This document shows positions 1,997-6,066 of a DNA stretch of 64,000 nucleotides, in pieces; position 1 is the stretch's first letter, and every line of letters begins with the position of its first letter. Location of the stretch: NCBI GenBank assembly GCA_965227295.1, contig OZ245742.1, forward strand, positions 544,001 to 608,000, written 5' to 3'. This stretch comes from Leptonemataceae bacterium (GTDB taxonomy: Bacteria; Spirochaetota; Leptospiria; Leptospirales; Leptonemataceae). A program made the position numbers and the translations under genes. A model generated the notes under the pieces. It saw only the letters and a list, made by a program, of their open reading frames with translations, was not told the origin of the DNA and made no database searches.

Positions 1997-2042
1997 GAAG
2001 AGGCCGTTCCTTGTTCCGGGCAGCCTCTCATCCTCCTGTGAC

Positions 2043-2726
2043 CTATCTTTCACCAAACTCCTTCGCCGACGCGCTCTCCCGACTCACAATCGCCGGCGCC
2101 TCGTGAATCAATTCGTCGTTCGTCAGCGCCTCCACCATAAACAAAGCAAAGTCCACCCGCCGCGTGATGTTGCTCTTCAACACGGGGTCCTGCACATGCC
2201 GCGACCAAAGCGGCAAGCCCTGAGACGGCCCCTCCTCGAGATCACTGCCGCGCACCACGGTCCAGCGCGTGTCGCTTGCGAAAATGCGCCGGCACGCTTC
2301 CACCTGATCGTCGATCTCCACGAGCCTTAACATCTTCACAATCGCACCTACCACGGCCAGCGTCGCCCGAAACAGCCGGGAGTACTCGTCCTTGCCGTCC
2401 TTCGAAATGTGCCAGCCGCAGGAAAAGATCAAGCGCGCGTCGGGCTTCGCGAAGTCGAGCACCGCCTGGGCCGTGCCGGAAGAATACTGCTGCACGCCCC
2501 AGGGCACCAGCACCGTAAGCACGCCGGCGCAACCGTCGACGGCTTCGCGAATCACTTCGCGATCATTGGTCTTGCCGGGCACGATCGTCATGCGATCGGC
2601 AAACTCTTCGAGCTTCGGCACACTCTTTTCGCGGCACACGCCCACGACCTCGTAACCGCGATCCAGGCAGTGTTGGATCATGTAACGCCCGAGTTTTCCG
2701 GAAGCGCCGACAATGCAAACTTTCAT
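2043..2726 (-). CDS. NAD(P)H-binding oxidoreductase (atypical SDR / flavin-reductase-like)
   Basis: Likely start MKVCIVGASGKLG (Rossmann GxxGxxG), plus 'WTVVRG' and 'ITRRVDFALFM'. The track ORF extends upstream into the repeat array, and that extension is probably spurious. Confidence 0.88.
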   Translation of the reverse strand: MKVCIVGASGKLGRYMIQHCLDRGYEVVGVCREKSVPKLEEFADRMTIVPGKTNDREVIREAVDGCAGVLTVLVPWGVQQYSSGTAQAVLDFAKPDARLIFSCGWHISKDGKDEYSRLFRATLAVVGAIVKMLRLVEIDDQVEACRRIFASDTRWTVVRGSDLEEGPSQGLPLWSRHVQDPVLKSNITRRVDFALFMVEALTNDELIHEAPAIVSRESASAKEFGER

Positions 2727-2782
2727 ACAAGAAGCAACTGTGCGCGGCATCACACGGTCAAGAGATTCCCGTGCAAGAACAG

Positions 2783-3981
2783 GAATAGAGCGGGGCTCCG
2801 GAGCGCACCTTCGCTTGCCGTATCTTAAAATCAGGACGCCGTTCCGGTGCGCGCCCCACCTTTCCCCGGCACAACCTCCGTGGGTGGGGAACATCTGCCG
2901 CGGCCACGACAAGCGTGGCCTTGCCCCTGGAACCAGCCGTGACCATAAAAGGCTAATGTACACTGGCCGACACTTACACCACGATTCAGAGCGTGCTCGA
3001 ACGAACAAAACTTCCCGGTAGTTCAAGAGCCGCGGTTCGAGGCGGTTGCCGCAAGAAACATGAAGTAAACTGCGCAACCGTGAAGGGCCTTTTTGGGCTA
3101 CGGCTCTACGGAGTTGTGGTATGTCGTTTTGCAAAGAACGCGGGATTCGACCCGGACGTCGGTTGTGCGACTCAGCTATCGCGAATCCGCACCCGCTCCG
3201 CCCCGCGGATAGAGCGGGGCTCCGGGGTGCGGATTCGCTTGATGTGCACTTTCAATTTTTGAGGCTCAGACACCGGGAACATACCGTACCGTTTCTCACG
3301 GTGGAGACGCCGTTCCGGTGCGCCTTACCACATTCCCCGGCATAACCTCCGTTCATCTGCTGGAACCAGCCGTACCCATAAAAGGCTTAATGCACACTGG
3401 CCGCCACTTACACCACGACTCGGGGCATGCTCGAACGAATAAAGCTTTCCGGTAATCCAGGAGCCGCGGTTCGCTACCGTCGTCGTGAGAAACAGGAAGT
3501 AAGTTGCGCAACGGTAAAGGGATTTGTATGGCTACGGCTTTGCGGGAGTTGTGGATTTTCGTTTTGTTAAGATGGTCCGCTTCGACCCGGACGTCGGTTT
3601 GTGACTCAGCTATCGCGAATCCGCACCCGCTCCGCCCCGCGAATAGAGCGGGGCTCCGGAGCGCACCTTCGCTTGCCGTATCTTAAAATCAAGACGCCGT
3701 TCCGGTGCGCCTTACCACGCTCCCCGGTGCTGGAACCAGCCGTACCCAAAAAAGGCTTAATGTAAACTGGCCGCCACTTACACCACGATTCGGGGCATGC
3801 TCGAACGAATAAAGCTTTCCGGTAATCCAGGAGCCGCGGTTCGTAACGGTTGCTGCAAGAAACATGAAGTAAGTTGCGCAACGGTAAAGGGATTTGTATG
3901 GCTACGGCTTTGCGGGAGTTGTGGAATTTCGTTTTGCAAAGAACGCCGACTTCGACCCGGACGTCGGATTGCGGCTCAGCT
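2783..3981. repeat. Tandem array of three diverged 340-435 bp non-coding palindromic units (2783-3206, 3207-3640, 3641-~3981)
   Basis: Shared blocks recur in the same order: ATAGAGCGGGGCTCCGG, GACGCCGTTCCGGTGCGC, TGGAACCAGCCGT, CACTTACACCACGA, TGCTCGAACGAA, GAGCCGCGGTTCG, GGCTACGGCT, TTCGACCCGGACGTCGG, CTCAGCT. Confidence 0.95.
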
Positions 3982-4026
3982 CCGTATTCCACTTGCCGTG
4001 CGCGAACGGAATTCCGTCAATGATCC

Positions 4027-4242
4027 GTGACGTCCGACTATCGCATCCAGATCGGCTTCGCCGGGGAACATCGCGCGACCGCCGCACGCCTGTACGCGGA
4101 GGCGTTTCGGGGTAAATTCGCCAACGTCCTCGGCGACGTCGACGCAGTCGCATGGCCGTTCCGACGACTCGTCGGCGTGAGCGGAGTCACCACGATGATC
4201 AAGCAACTACAGAATAAAGTCGGACAAAAACACTTTCCATAA
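4027..4242 (+). pseudogene. Probable internally deleted GNAT acetyltransferase remnant
   Basis: 'IQIGFAGEHRATAARLYAEAFRGKFANVLG' resembles the N-terminus of a GNAT subfamily and 'WPFRRLVGVSGVTTMIK' its C-terminus. The acetyl-CoA-binding core is missing (71 aa). Confidence 0.45.
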
Positions 4243-4269
4243 TAACACACCAACATAGACTTCCGCAGA

Positions 4270-6066
4270 ATGTTCGCCACGCTGGATCTCGCTATCTTCG
4301 TCCTCTTCCTCGCCCTCGTCATGGCCGTGGGTCTCATCGCCGGGCGGCGGGAGGATTCCAGCGAGGACTACTTCCTGGCCGGCCGCTCCATCCCCTGGTG
4401 GGGCGTCGCGGGCTCCATCTTCGGCACGAACGTCAGCGCGAATCACATCGTCGGCATGATGGGCATCGGCTTTTCCATCGGCTTCGCGCAAACGCACTTC
4501 GAAATCGGCGCGGTACTTGCGCTTTTGATTCTCGCGTACATCTTTTTGCCGGTTTACCTGAACCTGCGCATCTTTACGCTCAGCGAATACCTCGGCAAAC
4601 GCTACGGCCAGACGGCTTCGTTGCTCTACACGATCATCCTCATCGTACTCATCCTCGTACAAATGACGGCGGCTTTTTACATCGGCTCTCGCTCGCTCAT
4701 CTTACTGCTCCAGGGAACCATGATCGAACCGTCCTACATCGGCGGCGTGTGGATCCTGGTCTTCATCACCAGCGCGTATACGATCTTCGGCGGACTCAAG
4801 GCCGTGGTCTGGACCGACGTCATCCAATCGGCGTTGTTGCTCATCGCCGGGATCATCGTGGCGGTGCTGACGTTCGCGCAGCCGGAGGTCGGCGGCTGGA
4901 GCGGCATGATGGCGGCGGACGCCGCCCGCCCCGCCGCCGAACAAAAGATGCATCTGTATCTGCCGTCGGATCATCCGGAACTGCCCTGGACCGGCGCGCT
5001 CACCGGGCTGTTGTTTCTGCACGTCTTCTTCTGGGGAACGAACCAGTACCTCGTCCAGCGGGCTCTCGCGGCGAAGAGCGTCGCCGAAGCCCGCGTGGGC
5101 ATCTTCACCGGCGGTTTCCTTAAGTTACTCGTACCGTTCTTTAGCATAGCCGGTGGAATCGCCGCGGCGCAGTTGTTTACACAACGCCTGGACGTCCTCC
5201 CCGATCCGGACGAAACCTTCCCCGTCCTCGTAAGCCTCGTCATACCCCAGGGCTACGGTATCGTCGGCATCGTGCTCGCCGGTTTGATGGGCGCCATCAT
5301 CTCCACCATCGACTCCATGATGAACTCCGCGGCCACGTTGACGACCATCGACATCTACAAACGTTACTTCAATCCGAACGCCGACGACACGAAGATGATC
5401 CTCGTCGGCCGGCTGACCATCGCAGCCATCGTCCTCGCGGCGGCCCTGGCGGCGATCACGACCTACGATCCGAGCTCCAACGACAACTTCTTCCTGGCAG
5501 TGTCGGCGCAATCATCCTACTTCACGCCGGGCCTCGTGGCGGCTTTCGTACTGGGCATGTTCTATCGCGGAGCGCGCCCCACCGGCGCCGTCGCGGCCAT
5601 CGTGGCCACGCCCTTCGTGTCCGTCGGCATCCAGTTCTTCTACAATCATGTACTCGCCGAAACGGCGTTGTCGACTTACCTCGGCGCGGAGCTGAACTTC
5701 ATGCACCGCGTCGCCTTCGTAACCGTTGCCATGCTTCTGTTACACGTCGTCGTGAGCGCCTTCGAAACCAGGCAGCAAGAACGCGAACAGTATCTCTGGA
5801 TCGAAGCCACCGACGCCACCGCGGCCGGTATGCGCCGCATCCTCACGGGCTTCGGCGTCTTTTTGATCTTTCACATCGTCCTGGCCACGTTAATGGTAAA
5901 CGAGGCCGTCGTCTCGTCCGTAGCCGCCTGGATCAGCGCCGTGTTTACGCTGTCCCTCTTCATCGTAAACATGCGCCGTTCTCCGGCGGATTTCTACCGC
6001 GACGATCGTTTCTTCGCGGGCCTGTTATCCGCGGGGGCCATGTTTATCATGTTCTATTTTTACTAA
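4270..6066 (+). CDS. Sodium:solute symporter (SSS family)
   Basis: 'DYFLAGRSIPWW', 'YTIFGGLKAVVWTDVIQ', 'NQYLVQRALAAKS'; many transmembrane helices. Confidence 0.95.
   Translation: MFATLDLAIFVLFLALVMAVGLIAGRREDSSEDYFLAGRSIPWWGVAGSIFGTNVSANHIVGMMGIGFSIGFAQTHFEIGAVLALLILAYIFLPVYLNLRIFTLSEYLGKRYGQTASLLYTIILIVLILVQMTAAFYIGSRSLILLLQGTMIEPSYIGGVWILVFITSAYTIFGGLKAVVWTDVIQSALLLIAGIIVAVLTFAQPEVGGWSGMMAADAARPAAEQKMHLYLPSDHPELPWTGALTGLLFLHVFFWGTNQYLVQRALAAKSVAEARVGIFTGGFLKLLVPFFSIAGGIAAAQLFTQRLDVLPDPDETFPVLVSLVIPQGYGIVGIVLAGLMGAIISTIDSMMNSAATLTTIDIYKRYFNPNADDTKMILVGRLTIAAIVLAAALAAITTYDPSSNDNFFLAVSAQSSYFTPGLVAAFVLGMFYRGARPTGAVAAIVATPFVSVGIQFFYNHVLAETALSTYLGAELNFMHRVAFVTVAMLLLHVVVSAFETRQQEREQYLWIEATDATAAGMRRILTGFGVFLIFHIVLATLMVNEAVVSSVAAWISAVFTLSLFIVNMRRSPADFYRDDRFFAGLLSAGAMFIMFYFY

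Follow-up and report, generated by a model that had tools for sequence, protein, structure and literature searches.

The three tandem units at positions 2783-3981 of the analysed window, a stretch of 64,000 nucleotides, form one array of a lineage-specific interspersed repeat family, which the earlier note on this DNA had missed. A profile HMM built from 88 units and searched with nhmmer against the organism's own genome, a single contig of 5.94 Mb that is 93.6% complete by marker genes, gave 319 matches covering 70,208 bp (70.2 kb), or 1.2% of the genome; about 5 of these matches are reverse-strand self-matches of an inverted core. They group into 124 same-strand arrays, merged into about 114 loci, with up to 9 matches in the largest arrays, and other similarity counts in the same genome were 174 matches and 327 blastn HSPs. 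The family occupies these ~114 intergenic sites mostly beside gene 3' ends, and it is a repetitive sequence at the level of DNA, not a rod-shaped RNA gene. We consider it probable that the array is a lineage-specific, non-coding, mosaic interspersed repeat with REP/BIME-like behaviour. The earlier proposal of a non-autonomous repeated element amplified in tandem was therefore right in kind, as a high-copy interspersed family was found.

The array and its flanking genes

Repeat search and alignment both recovered the three diverged head-to-tail copies at 2783-3981 that had been described before. A 254-nt repeat family lies at 2924-3177, 3358-3611 and 3728-3981 (identity 65, 100 and 91%; spacing 434 and 370), together with a pair of leader repeats at 2783-2869 and 3641-3727 that are 90% identical, and the same leader precedes many other arrays. 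The mean column identity in a MAFFT alignment of the three copies is 79%, and the units diverge from one another by 9-35%. Tandem Repeats Finder, applied to 2000-5000 with the minimum score lowered to 30, returned no rows, the length and divergence of the units being beyond what the program handles. A unit length of ~430 nt had been proposed; this spacing is seen locally, but the period of the conserved core is ~327 nt, and the remainder is an optional hairpin or linker module. The units abut each other with no unique spacers between them, confirming that the array is not a CRISPR.

Table 1. Features of the array and its flanks in window coordinates
Feature	Position	Strand	Composition or evidence
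NAD(P)H-binding / NmrA-like protein gene, upstream flank	2043..2726	-	Pfam NAD_binding_10, E 4.8e-16
Array leader	2783..2819	+	H-type hairpin loop and right arm (left arm missing), then short linker
Unit 1	2820..3181	+	Module A ~2820-3020, module B ~3021-3181; nhmmer HMM positions 2-327, E 4.1e-85
h2, small optional GC hairpin within module A of unit 1	2899..2925	+	Regex scan
H, inter-unit hairpin	3181..3238	+	Inverted repeat of 14 nt, 100% complementary; outer stem 3181-3194/3225-3238, inner stem 3200-3206/3214-3220, 7-nt loop 3207-3213
Linker, H to unit 2	3239..3289	+	Insertion peculiar to copy 2 in the alignment
Unit 2	3290..3615	+	Module A 3290-3454, module B 3455-3615; nhmmer HMM positions 1-327, E 2.6e-103
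Weak terminator-like hairpin with many G-T pairs, then T-rich run, module B	3532..3554	+	Consensus scan
Second H copy, hybrid	3615..3672	+	Folds at -31 kcal/mol, z -2.2
Unit 3	3678..3981	+	Module A ~3678-3824, module B ~3825-3981; nhmmer HMM positions 2-323, E 8.8e-89
Sodium:solute symporter gene, downstream flank	4270..6066	+	Pfam SSF, E 1.7e-59

Unit 1 reaches 362 nt because a small hairpin is inserted, unit 2 is the nearest of the three to the family consensus, and unit 3 has a ~22-nt deletion in module A. The linker between H and unit 2 has a near-identical counterpart in an array at genome position 2,307,067. In the second H copy the left and right arms come from different subtypes, so that the outer stem is mismatched; the same hybrid is found at genome position 508,539. 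The terminator-like hairpin of unit 2 has counterparts at 3097-3120 and 3902-3924. With the start codon of the NAD(P)H-binding / NmrA-like gene facing it, the array lies between divergent genes, which is a rare configuration for the family. Orthologues of the symporter in two same-genus genomes are 65-66% identical; in one of these genomes the orthologue has another upstream neighbour, so the window's locus offers no empty-site comparison.

A mosaic of four modules

The modules A, B, H and h2 are combined in the family in mosaic fashion. Module A (~150 nt) and module B (~155 nt) constitute the 327-nt core, H is an optional 58-nt GC hairpin placed before A, and h2 is a small optional hairpin. 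Of 124 arrays, 50 start at the beginning of A and 45 at the A/B centre, while 66 end at the A/B centre and 36 at the end of B. Solo copies of A and of B are present in the genome, with half-units standing alone at many loci. Wherever the family occurs, short-read assemblies are interrupted.

Strong structure is confined to the 58-nt H hairpin, which the earlier note had overlooked. H folds at -48 kcal/mol (z -5.7 on the + strand and -6.5 on the - strand), and none of 200 shuffles was as stable. It occurs at 45 loci, 43 of them in arrays or at most 150 bp away, and in 41 of 42 cases it is oriented like the array, so that one H follows another as a direct repeat, without alternation. Its outer stem carries compensatory changes at 3 of 14 pairs (GC/CG/TA, CG/GC and CG/TA), with 38 two-sided versus 84 one-sided cells among 36 distinct copies, while the inner stem and loop are nearly invariant across the family. 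By hand count, with many cells inherited and some copies truncated, A-C mismatches in the outer stem on the unit + strand outnumber G-T mismatches by 28 to 9. For a hairpin acting as RNA, such an excess would speak for the opposite strand, a conclusion that we do not draw. A regex scan of the genome found the smaller hairpin h2 32 times, in 28 cases inside an array or adjoining one; h2 has two stem variants that differ on both arms.

Conservation, exchange between loci and relatives

Variation along the core is uneven. At 64 of the 327 sites at most 1 of 123 copies differs, and at 62 sites at least 40 copies do; with rare variants at 1.5% per site per copy, 91 sites have no rare variant versus 49.6 expected under a Poisson model. 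This unevenness suggests site-specific constraint or homogenisation. The strong position-specific conservation could reflect function, including an RNA function invisible to thermodynamic and covariation tests.

The segment 3282-3981, hybrid hairpin included, matches genome positions 508,197-508,914 on the - strand, 36 kb away, with 90% identity over 718 nt. Only 2 inter-locus blocks are at least 93% identical over at least 250 bp, so that a recent copy event is not seen. Units are 84.0% identical within arrays (81 pairs) versus 79.6% between arrays (7,422 pairs), and the nearest relative lies in the unit's own array for 40 of 92 units, indicating that simple local duplication cannot explain all of the similarity.

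With the unit as DNA query, a search of 40 relatives yielded nothing beyond weak module-B matches in the 2 same-genus genomes. The module-A pattern had no matches in metagenome contigs, and the module-B pattern had 1 there and 6 in genome contigs; 5 of the 6 are in the two same-genus genomes, and the sixth, a 70-nt match in an unrelated MAG, is likely due to chance. The H core pattern was absent from the 2 congeners and matched once, at two mismatches, among 28 other genomes of the taxonomic family. The two same-genus genomes carry solitary ~90-nt B-like elements downstream of genes, 6-93 nt past the stop of long co-oriented ORFs, and one such element stands where the genome studied here has an array at the orthologous site. 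Sequence blocks of module B are conserved in the cross-species alignment.

Arrays lie beside gene 3' ends

Gene context was derived from our own crude ORF caller, and the arrays seed spurious ORF calls within themselves, with such ORFs called inside some of them. On these rough calls the loci are extragenic, lying between called ORFs, and 53 lie between convergent versus 11 between divergent genes, compared with a background of 799:799 (p = 1e-7). Array edges lie a median of 17.5 bp from the neighbouring stop codon, 87 of 156 of them at 25 bp or less. Units between co-directional genes show no bias in orientation, 29 having that of the genes and 21 the opposite one (p = 0.32). Relative to replication, unit orientation is co-directional in 30 cases and opposite in 58 (p = 0.004), where 52.7% of genes are co-directional.

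This placement is what would be expected if the modules were host-selected cis elements of gene 3' ends, i.e. terminators, insulators of convergent genes or stabilisers of mRNA 3' ends, with tandem growth as a by-product. The reading overlaps in part with the one that we prefer, and is consistent with the abutment of arrays to stop codons, the excess of convergent sites, and the cross-species conservation and position past stop codons of the B-like elements in the two same-genus genomes. It is also consistent with the hairpin and T-run in B and the high stability of H on both strands. Terminator-like sites number 5 in the consensus versus 1.8 +/- 1.6 in shuffles, one of them on the + strand of each unit. 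However, termination would need no more than one module, and arrays reach 9 matches; their orientation relative to co-directional genes is random; H has no adjoining T-run in the window sequence; and the cross-species alignment of module B has no consensus structure (-3.15 kcal/mol). Furthermore, 11 loci, including that of the window, are in promoter-containing divergent spacers. Taken as the full explanation, selection as cis elements therefore seems rather unlikely.

Search for a mobilising enzyme

The earlier note had suggested a REPIN/MITE-like fold-back element, perhaps moved by an HUH/RAYT-type enzyme encoded elsewhere; as a rival reading this becomes a transposon mobilised in trans by a RAYT/IS200-type HUH (Y1) transposase or by some other one. 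In favour of such an element are the high copy number, the extragenic and lineage-specific distribution, and hairpin modules that, as in REPs, carry compensatory changes. The orientation bias of 30 versus 58 is of the kind expected of mechanisms acting on single-stranded DNA, and a unit re-phased as B-A has subterminal inverted repeats. The specifics of the suggestion were not borne out. Neither Y1_Tnp (Y1/HUH, PF01797) nor the TnpB zinc ribbon (PF07282) had a match in the single-contig genome, where controls matched, and no family of proteins is found repeatedly next to arrays, the largest cluster comprising 8 of 426 flanking proteins. H positions genome-wide include no pair of inverted copies bracketing a gene, the copies within arrays being direct. 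We noticed no target-site duplications when the flanks of 124 5' and 3' junctions were read by eye, and found no clear empty-versus-filled junction for the family's arrays. Reverse transcriptases and IS-family transposases are present in the genome and are not flanked by family modules; the sole link is one IS copy that landed between two arrays. Considering that enzyme, target-site duplication and clear empty-versus-filled junction were all not found, we infer mobility from the distribution of the copies alone, and regard a transposon of this type as unlikely.

The fold-back does not behave as a structured RNA

An undescribed family of long structured RNAs had also been put forward, in which each unit would be a gene for a rod-like non-coding RNA of 200-430 nt and the arrays would be tandem RNA genes. 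The complementary segments on which this was based are present in the sequence at 3368-3380/3527-3539, 3406-3411/3499-3504 and 3432-3436/3469-3473, as are the outer pair 3328-3342/3541-3554 and the TAAT at 3453-3456. They correspond to a diverged inverted repeat of ~45 nt between A and B that is present in every unit, and this shared inverted core is the source of the apparent fold-back. Inverted similarity between the halves of the consensus scored 16.5 versus 9.5 +/- 1.5 (maximum 16.0) in 500 shuffles, under milder scoring than that used for aligning the whole consensus with its own reverse complement, which gave a non-significant 25 versus 20.9 +/- 4.5.

The stability of the proposed rod is not above chance in comparison with dinucleotide shuffles. 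Unit 2 folds on the + strand at -101 kcal/mol versus -108.5 +/- 5.3 for shuffles (z +1.40; 94 of 100 shuffles equal or better) and has z +1.47 on the - strand, with 90 of 100 shuffles folding equally well or better. For 16 randomly drawn genomic units, the mean z was +0.22 on the + strand and +0.62 on the - strand. RNAalifold over 123 units yielded a consensus of merely -11.1 (+) and -7.0 (-) kcal/mol. Each of the 40 pairs with the highest mutual information is either non-complementary or part of a local haplotype block, with none on the fold-back axis, and the proposed stems show 595 one-sided versus 29 two-sided (compensatory) changes. Rfam 15 had no matches in window positions 2000-5000 at E <= 1.

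The proposal of a long structured RNA thus fails on both shuffles and covariation, the grounds of refutation that the earlier note itself had named. Promoters of the sigma-54 and sigma-70 types were sought by eye and by scan; the scan gave none, with 0 sigma-70-like matches in 2600-4400. Orientation relative to neighbouring transcription is random, and half-units stand at many loci. The high, position-specific conservation over 123 units, the inverted repeat in every unit, and a weak hairpin with T-run on the + strand of each unit, with H as a possible terminator, would all suit an RNA gene. Weighing these against the folding results, we consider arrays of RNA genes improbable.

Coding potential and assembly

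As claimed before, the units encode no conserved protein. The family consensus has stops in all six frames and lacks 3-base periodicity, its variability by codon phase being 0.169/0.135/0.173. Four array ORFs contained no Pfam families, and a search of proteins of near length found no homologues of the 127-aa array ORF. That 327 is divisible by 3, and that the module B consensus contains a hydrophobic ORF of 19 codons, would fit decayed coding fragments or type I toxin-antitoxin-like loci with a small peptide. Tandem repeats of the latter kind (LDR/SIB type) have a conserved small hydrophobic ORF in each unit, whereas here the 19-codon ORF is intact in just 20 of 123 units, and we rejected it as a type I toxin. 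Its start codon is present in 48 of 123 units, and within this stretch the length varies by one base between copies and between species. A coding origin is largely refuted, and very improbable.

A collapsed or mis-joined repeat is equally improbable: short-read contigs from two runs of one study, which may include the source sample of the genome and so are not independent support, end at the array edges (2812/2833 and 3938) and do not bridge the array, but breaks at a multi-copy repeat are expected, unit-specific contigs at 2804-2893 (197x) and 3010-3083 (193x) have 0-1 differences at a depth comparable to the single-copy flanks (183-188x), the three units differ by 9-35%, and more than 100 other loci have unique flanks.

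Discussion

The family is best read as a new, RAYT-less, BIME-like mosaic extragenic repeat, and it resembles REP/BIME far more than a long folded RNA. A REP is defined as a short imperfect palindrome of 20-40 nt (PMC2817692), and REP/BIME elements are present in more than 100 copies per genome, extragenic and species-specific, with composite modules and linkers in tandem clusters (PMC2817692, PMC3333891). The palindromes are described as regularly spaced in alternating orientation, with the cognate RAYT (Y1/HUH) gene between two inverted REPs (PMC2817692), and for gamma-proteobacteria roles in termination, mRNA stability and chromosome structure have been proposed (PMC2817692, PMC3333891). 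The present family is similar in being high-copy (319 matches, 114 loci), extragenic, lineage-specific, modular and tandem, in the complementary changes by which H and h2 keep their palindromes paired, and in that a role in termination, mRNA stability or chromosome structure can be proposed. It differs in that modules A and B are ~150 nt long and non-palindromic, with no excess folding, in contrast to palindromes of 20-40 nt. Palindromes occur only as the optional, directly oriented H (58 nt) and h2 (~27 nt), with only the ~45-nt A/B core alternating, and there is no visible GTAG-type head, RAYT/Y1 gene or sequence relation to REPs.

With REPINs (PMC3116915) the family shares two related cores inverted inside one repeated non-autonomous unit. 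Unlike in REPINs, the cores are ~45 nt long, ~75% alike and ~90 nt apart, and show no compensatory evolution; the unit has no excess fold stability, and a RAYT is absent. MITEs (PMC3184786) are likewise non-coding, a few hundred bases long, intergenic and multi-copy, with inverted repeats. In contrast to MITEs, our copies form head-to-tail arrays, not single insertions, and terminal inverted repeats at array ends, target-site duplications on reading of the flanks and a parent IS were not found. Array ends fall at two module boundaries.

Mycobacterial MIRUs occur as the same short tandem array at many intergenic loci, with a function that is unclear or debated. Short arrays at many intergenic loci, again of unclear or debated function, are also formed by staphylococcal STAR elements (PMC3532100) and by the long intergenic CIR repeats of Caulobacter (PMC3372372). 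The family resembles all three in having one short tandem array type at many intergenic loci; unlike in them, its unit is several-fold longer (327-430 nt) and modular, has covarying hairpins and accounts for 1.2% of the genome.

In the preferred reading of a mosaic, BIME-like repeat, the hairpin modules would be read as structures in single-stranded DNA or RNA, and unequal recombination at module boundaries may let arrays grow and shrink. Multi-unit blocks would be copied or converted between loci, and insertions would persist mainly where promoters are left undisturbed. A bolder version, which we regard as doubtful, is a RAYT-independent counterpart of REP/BIME in which a trans factor binds H in single-stranded DNA at the replication fork, and which the host uses as a bidirectional 3'-end element between convergent genes. 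If so, the putative factor would drive the spread and homogenisation of ~150-nt modules, and its action at the fork would account for the 58:30 orientation bias; the invariant loop and inner stem of H would be recognised, and the outer stem would merely need to pair.

Bacterial genomes generally count as poor in satellite-like DNA, and the interspersed repeats best understood in them, REP/BIME and REPINs, are linked to RAYT transposases. In the present case, an uncultured Leptospirales-type bacterium has 1.2% of its DNA in a modular 327-nt repeat, set in more than 100 short arrays against gene 3' ends. The repeat has covarying hairpins, but the genome yielded no RAYT, no TnpB and no other gene associated with it. 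If the family is purely selfish, it would be a repeat that spreads without the known enzyme; if its modules act as terminators or insulators, they would bear on how transcription ends between convergent genes in this lineage.

A dispersed, modular repeat family

The array in the window belongs to a high-copy, non-coding, modular, lineage-specific and intergenic repeat family, with two covarying hairpin modules and without long-range RNA structure. The host genome is a single contig of 5.94 Mb (59.8% G+C), against which the middle unit as query gave 174 matches and 327 blastn HSPs. A family HMM of 327 positions, built from 88 units, returned 319 nhmmer matches (about five being reverse-strand self-matches), which add up to 70,208 bp, 1.2% of its length, and group into 124 same-strand arrays, or 114 loci after merging; the repeated element of non-autonomous type proposed in the earlier note is borne out in kind. 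Near-full-length matches numbered 123, with a mean pairwise identity of 79.5% (range 68-97%).

In the window, repeat search and MAFFT alignment recovered the three diverged head-to-tail copies already noticed at 2783-3981 (mean column identity 79%), while Tandem Repeats Finder reported nothing on the array region. The suggested period of ~430 nt is seen here, but only 3290-3615 is conserved core, the remainder being optional spacer. Short-read contigs from two runs of one study break off at the edges of the array, the usual outcome at repeats, and unit-specific pieces within the array match such contigs at single-copy depth; as the runs may include the source sample, these data lend weak support to the array assembly.

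Positions of array components, neighbouring genes and other elements (window coordinates, or G000:C1 for coordinates on the single genome contig)
Feature	Position	Strand	Remark
254-nt repeat copies	2924-3177; 3358-3611; 3728-3981		65, 100 and 91% identity to middle copy; spacing 434 and 370 nt
Leader repeats	2783-2869; 3641-3727		repeat search of window
Units in HMM terms	2820-3181; 3290-3615; 3678-3981		nhmmer
H, 58-nt GC hairpin	3181-3238		third module
h2, small hairpin	2899-2925		fourth module
Second H, hybrid	3615-3672		left arm of one subtype, right arm of another
NAD(P)H-binding protein gene	2043-2726	-	flanks array
Sodium:solute symporter gene	4270-6066	+	flanks array
ORFs of 89-128 codons	2713-3021; 2993-3262; 3606-3992; others	both	traverse units
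Weak rve-like ORF, 366 aa	G000:C1 1,035,116-1,035,436		6 copies genome-wide
Arrays on either side of rve-like ORF	G000:C1 1,034,576-1,034,816; 1,035,970-1,036,075
Head-to-head inverted pairs, diverged B-like subtype	G000:C1 776,280-776,589; 1,378,565-1,378,857; 1,423,622-1,423,764
Second, unrelated repeat	G000:C1 315,874; 447,598; 1,472,055; 1,771,471; 2,683,036; 4,361,292; 4,838,656; 4,852,789; 5,892,006		9 copies, pattern scan

Mosaic anatomy and divergence of the units

Arrays start at HMM positions 1-30 (50/124) or near the centre, at 126-200 (45/124), and end near the centre, at 133-205 (66/124), or at the unit end (36/124); all four start/end pairings were seen, and solo halves also exist. 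The two start points, two end points and solo halves indicate that the 327-nt unit consists of two modules, A (about HMM 1-150) and B (about 170-327). Hairpin H was found at 45 loci, at 43 of them inside arrays or no more than 150 bp away, always 5' of module A and in the orientation of the array in 41 of 42 copies; of the 32 copies of h2, 28 lie in arrays. H folds at -48 kcal/mol (z -5.7 and -6.5; equalled by none of 200 shuffles). A comparison of 36 distinct copies shows swaps of Watson-Crick type at three of the outer stem's 14 pairs (GC/CG/TA, CG/GC, CG/TA), and the inner stem and 7-nt loop are near-invariant. The h2 stem exists as two variants differing in both arms. The hybrid H of the window recurs in an array at genome position 508 kb, to which window 3282-3981 is 90% identical over 718 nt, implying that multi-unit blocks are copied or converted between loci.

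Units of the same array share 84.0% identity (81 pairs), little more than units of different arrays (79.6%, 7,422 pairs), and 40 of 92 units have their nearest relative in their own array; just two blocks shared between loci are 93% or more identical over 250 bp or more. Divergence is mostly shared rather than private, the rate of rare variants being 1.5% per site and copy. Of the 327 sites, 64 have at most one deviating copy among 123 and 62 have at least 40, and 91 sites lack a rare variant where 49.6 were expected. This pattern is compatible with a reshuffling of variant blocks between copies, accompanied by constraint or, equally, homogenisation at particular sites.

Folding and coding potential

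The earlier note had read each unit as a rod-like fold-back, possibly a family of long structured RNAs. The complementary segments that it quoted are all present in the window sequence where it had placed them, but folding and covariation tests showed that the structure is not maintained. For unit 2, the middle copy, dinucleotide shuffles fold better on either strand (z +1.40 and +1.47; 94/100 and 90/100 shuffles, respectively, equal or exceed its stability), and 16 randomly drawn units gave mean z values of +0.22 and +0.62 for the two strands. The RNAalifold consensus over 123 units reached only -11.1 and -7.0 kcal/mol. The top 40 mutual-information pairs are local haplotype blocks or non-complementary and all fall off the fold-back axis, and across 31 proposed stem pairs one-sided changes numbered 758 (595 + 66 + 97) versus 34 two-sided (29 + 0 + 5). 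At pair 82-248 the four combinations occur at frequencies expected of independent sites; the extra pairing remarked on in copy 1 is likewise one chance combination. Nor was there an Rfam match for the array region at E <= 1; the rod-like RNA reading is not supported. The stems are instead the trace of a ~45-nt core common to A (HMM 78-122) and B (HMM 211-252) in inverted orientation, whose alignment scored 16.5 against 9.5 +/- 1.5 in 500 shuffles (maximum 16.0).

As had been supposed, no protein is conserved: the family consensus has stops in all six frames, variability among units is independent of codon phase, four array ORFs matched no Pfam family, and the longest (127 aa) had no homologue in a large protein collection. 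Module B contains a hydrophobic 19-codon ORF, but just 20 of the 123 units keep it intact. The ORFs that traverse the units are likely to be annotated as hypothetical proteins by gene callers, and our own rough ORF calling, made for the analysis of gene context, put spurious genes in some arrays (315 bp overlap at the window locus).

Genomic context and mobile-element genes

By these ORF calls, convergent genes enclose 53 loci and divergent genes 11, where the background is 799:799 (p = 1e-7). A further 50 are bounded by co-directional genes, with unit orientation the same in 29 and opposite in 21 (p = 0.32), which argues against a strand-specific role. Array edges lie a median of 17.5 bp from the stop codon, and 25 bp or less in 87 of 156 cases. 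By cumulative GC skew, the origin is near 1.15 Mb and the terminus near 4.05 Mb; arrays of 250 bp or more run against the replication fork in 58 cases and with it in 30 (p = 0.004), genes being 52.7% co-directional. The window array occupies a 1.5-kb spacer with divergent genes on either side. The gap from the start of the NAD-binding gene (2726) to the array (2783) is 57 bp, leaving scant promoter room, and a scan of window 2600-4400 found no sigma-70-like promoter match anywhere in the spacer; the promoters of both genes may lie inside the repeat or be affected by it.

An HUH/RAYT-type enzyme encoded elsewhere had been suggested as the mover, yet neither Y1/RAYT nor TnpB had a match in the whole single-contig genome, and no protein family recurs beside arrays (largest cluster, 8 of 426 flanking proteins). 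The genome holds matches to reverse transcriptases (10), an IS110-type gene (1), rve (12) and DDE_Tnp_1 (7), and a link of these to arrays was not seen, bar one IS copy near 1.035 Mb. There the rve-like ORF lies between two arrays, which points to an array interrupted by an IS insertion. The ten RVT_1 matches fall into groups of identical copies (2 x 624 aa, 2 x 472 aa, 4 x 456 aa, others), a pattern that active group II introns or comparable retroelements would produce; none adjoins an array.

Relatives and other repeats

Among 40 relatives, the unit matched only two same-genus genomes, weakly and in module B only (2/24 genomes of the host's taxonomic family, 0/16 of the neighbouring one). 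These congener B-like elements are solitary, ~90 nt long, share four sequence blocks and number 2 and 5 by pattern match (controls 0). Each follows a long ORF of the same orientation, 6-93 nt past its stop codon, and the gene on the other side is often convergent; the elements have no consensus structure across species (only -3.15 kcal/mol). For one of these elements the orthologous position in the host genome carries a 1-kb array; for another it is empty. A pattern scan did not find H in the two congeners. In public genome contigs the module-B pattern gave six stretches, five in the two congeners, and in metagenome contigs one, where the module-A pattern gave none. The congener elements imply that module B is old in the genus; as far as the sampled genomes show, only the host lineage has the A-B-H mosaic and has expanded it.

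At a few loci of the host genome diverged B-like copies form inverted pairs instead of A-B arrays, and a similar pair occurs at one congener locus. The second repeat consists of a T-run, a GC-rich hairpin and a conserved tail, in that order; its stem arms vary together between copies, none of the nine being near unit arrays.

Interpretation

REP/BIME elements are defined in PMC2817692 as short palindromes in more than 100 copies, extragenic, alternating in orientation and having a cognate RAYT. The present family resembles them in copy number, extragenic location and compensatory palindrome changes, but differs in unit size and in lacking both palindrome alternation and a RAYT; on these three points we rejected filing it as REP/BIME. 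It probably behaves like REP/BIME-type extragenic mosaic elements. A species-specific repeat survey (PMC3372372) puts about 11% of such repeats in tandem and reports many intergenic repeats without known function; the literature search also brought up work on REP/BIME/RAYT and REPINs, STAR elements and Bacillus tandem repeats. Neither a 300-400-nt modular intergenic array family nor any repeat of the host organism was found by keyword, a search that cannot prove absence. The repeat is real and, within the literature so searched, undescribed; it is a variant within the known class of bacterial interspersed mosaic repeats.

Three mechanisms agree with these observations. Unequal recombination at module boundaries could generate the array ends, ectopic conversion could give rise to the shared hybrid block and reshuffled variant blocks, and survival only away from promoters would produce the bias to convergent spacers. 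A role for the host at gene 3' ends is plausible, in view of the stop codons that arrays abut and of the B-like elements located after congener genes.
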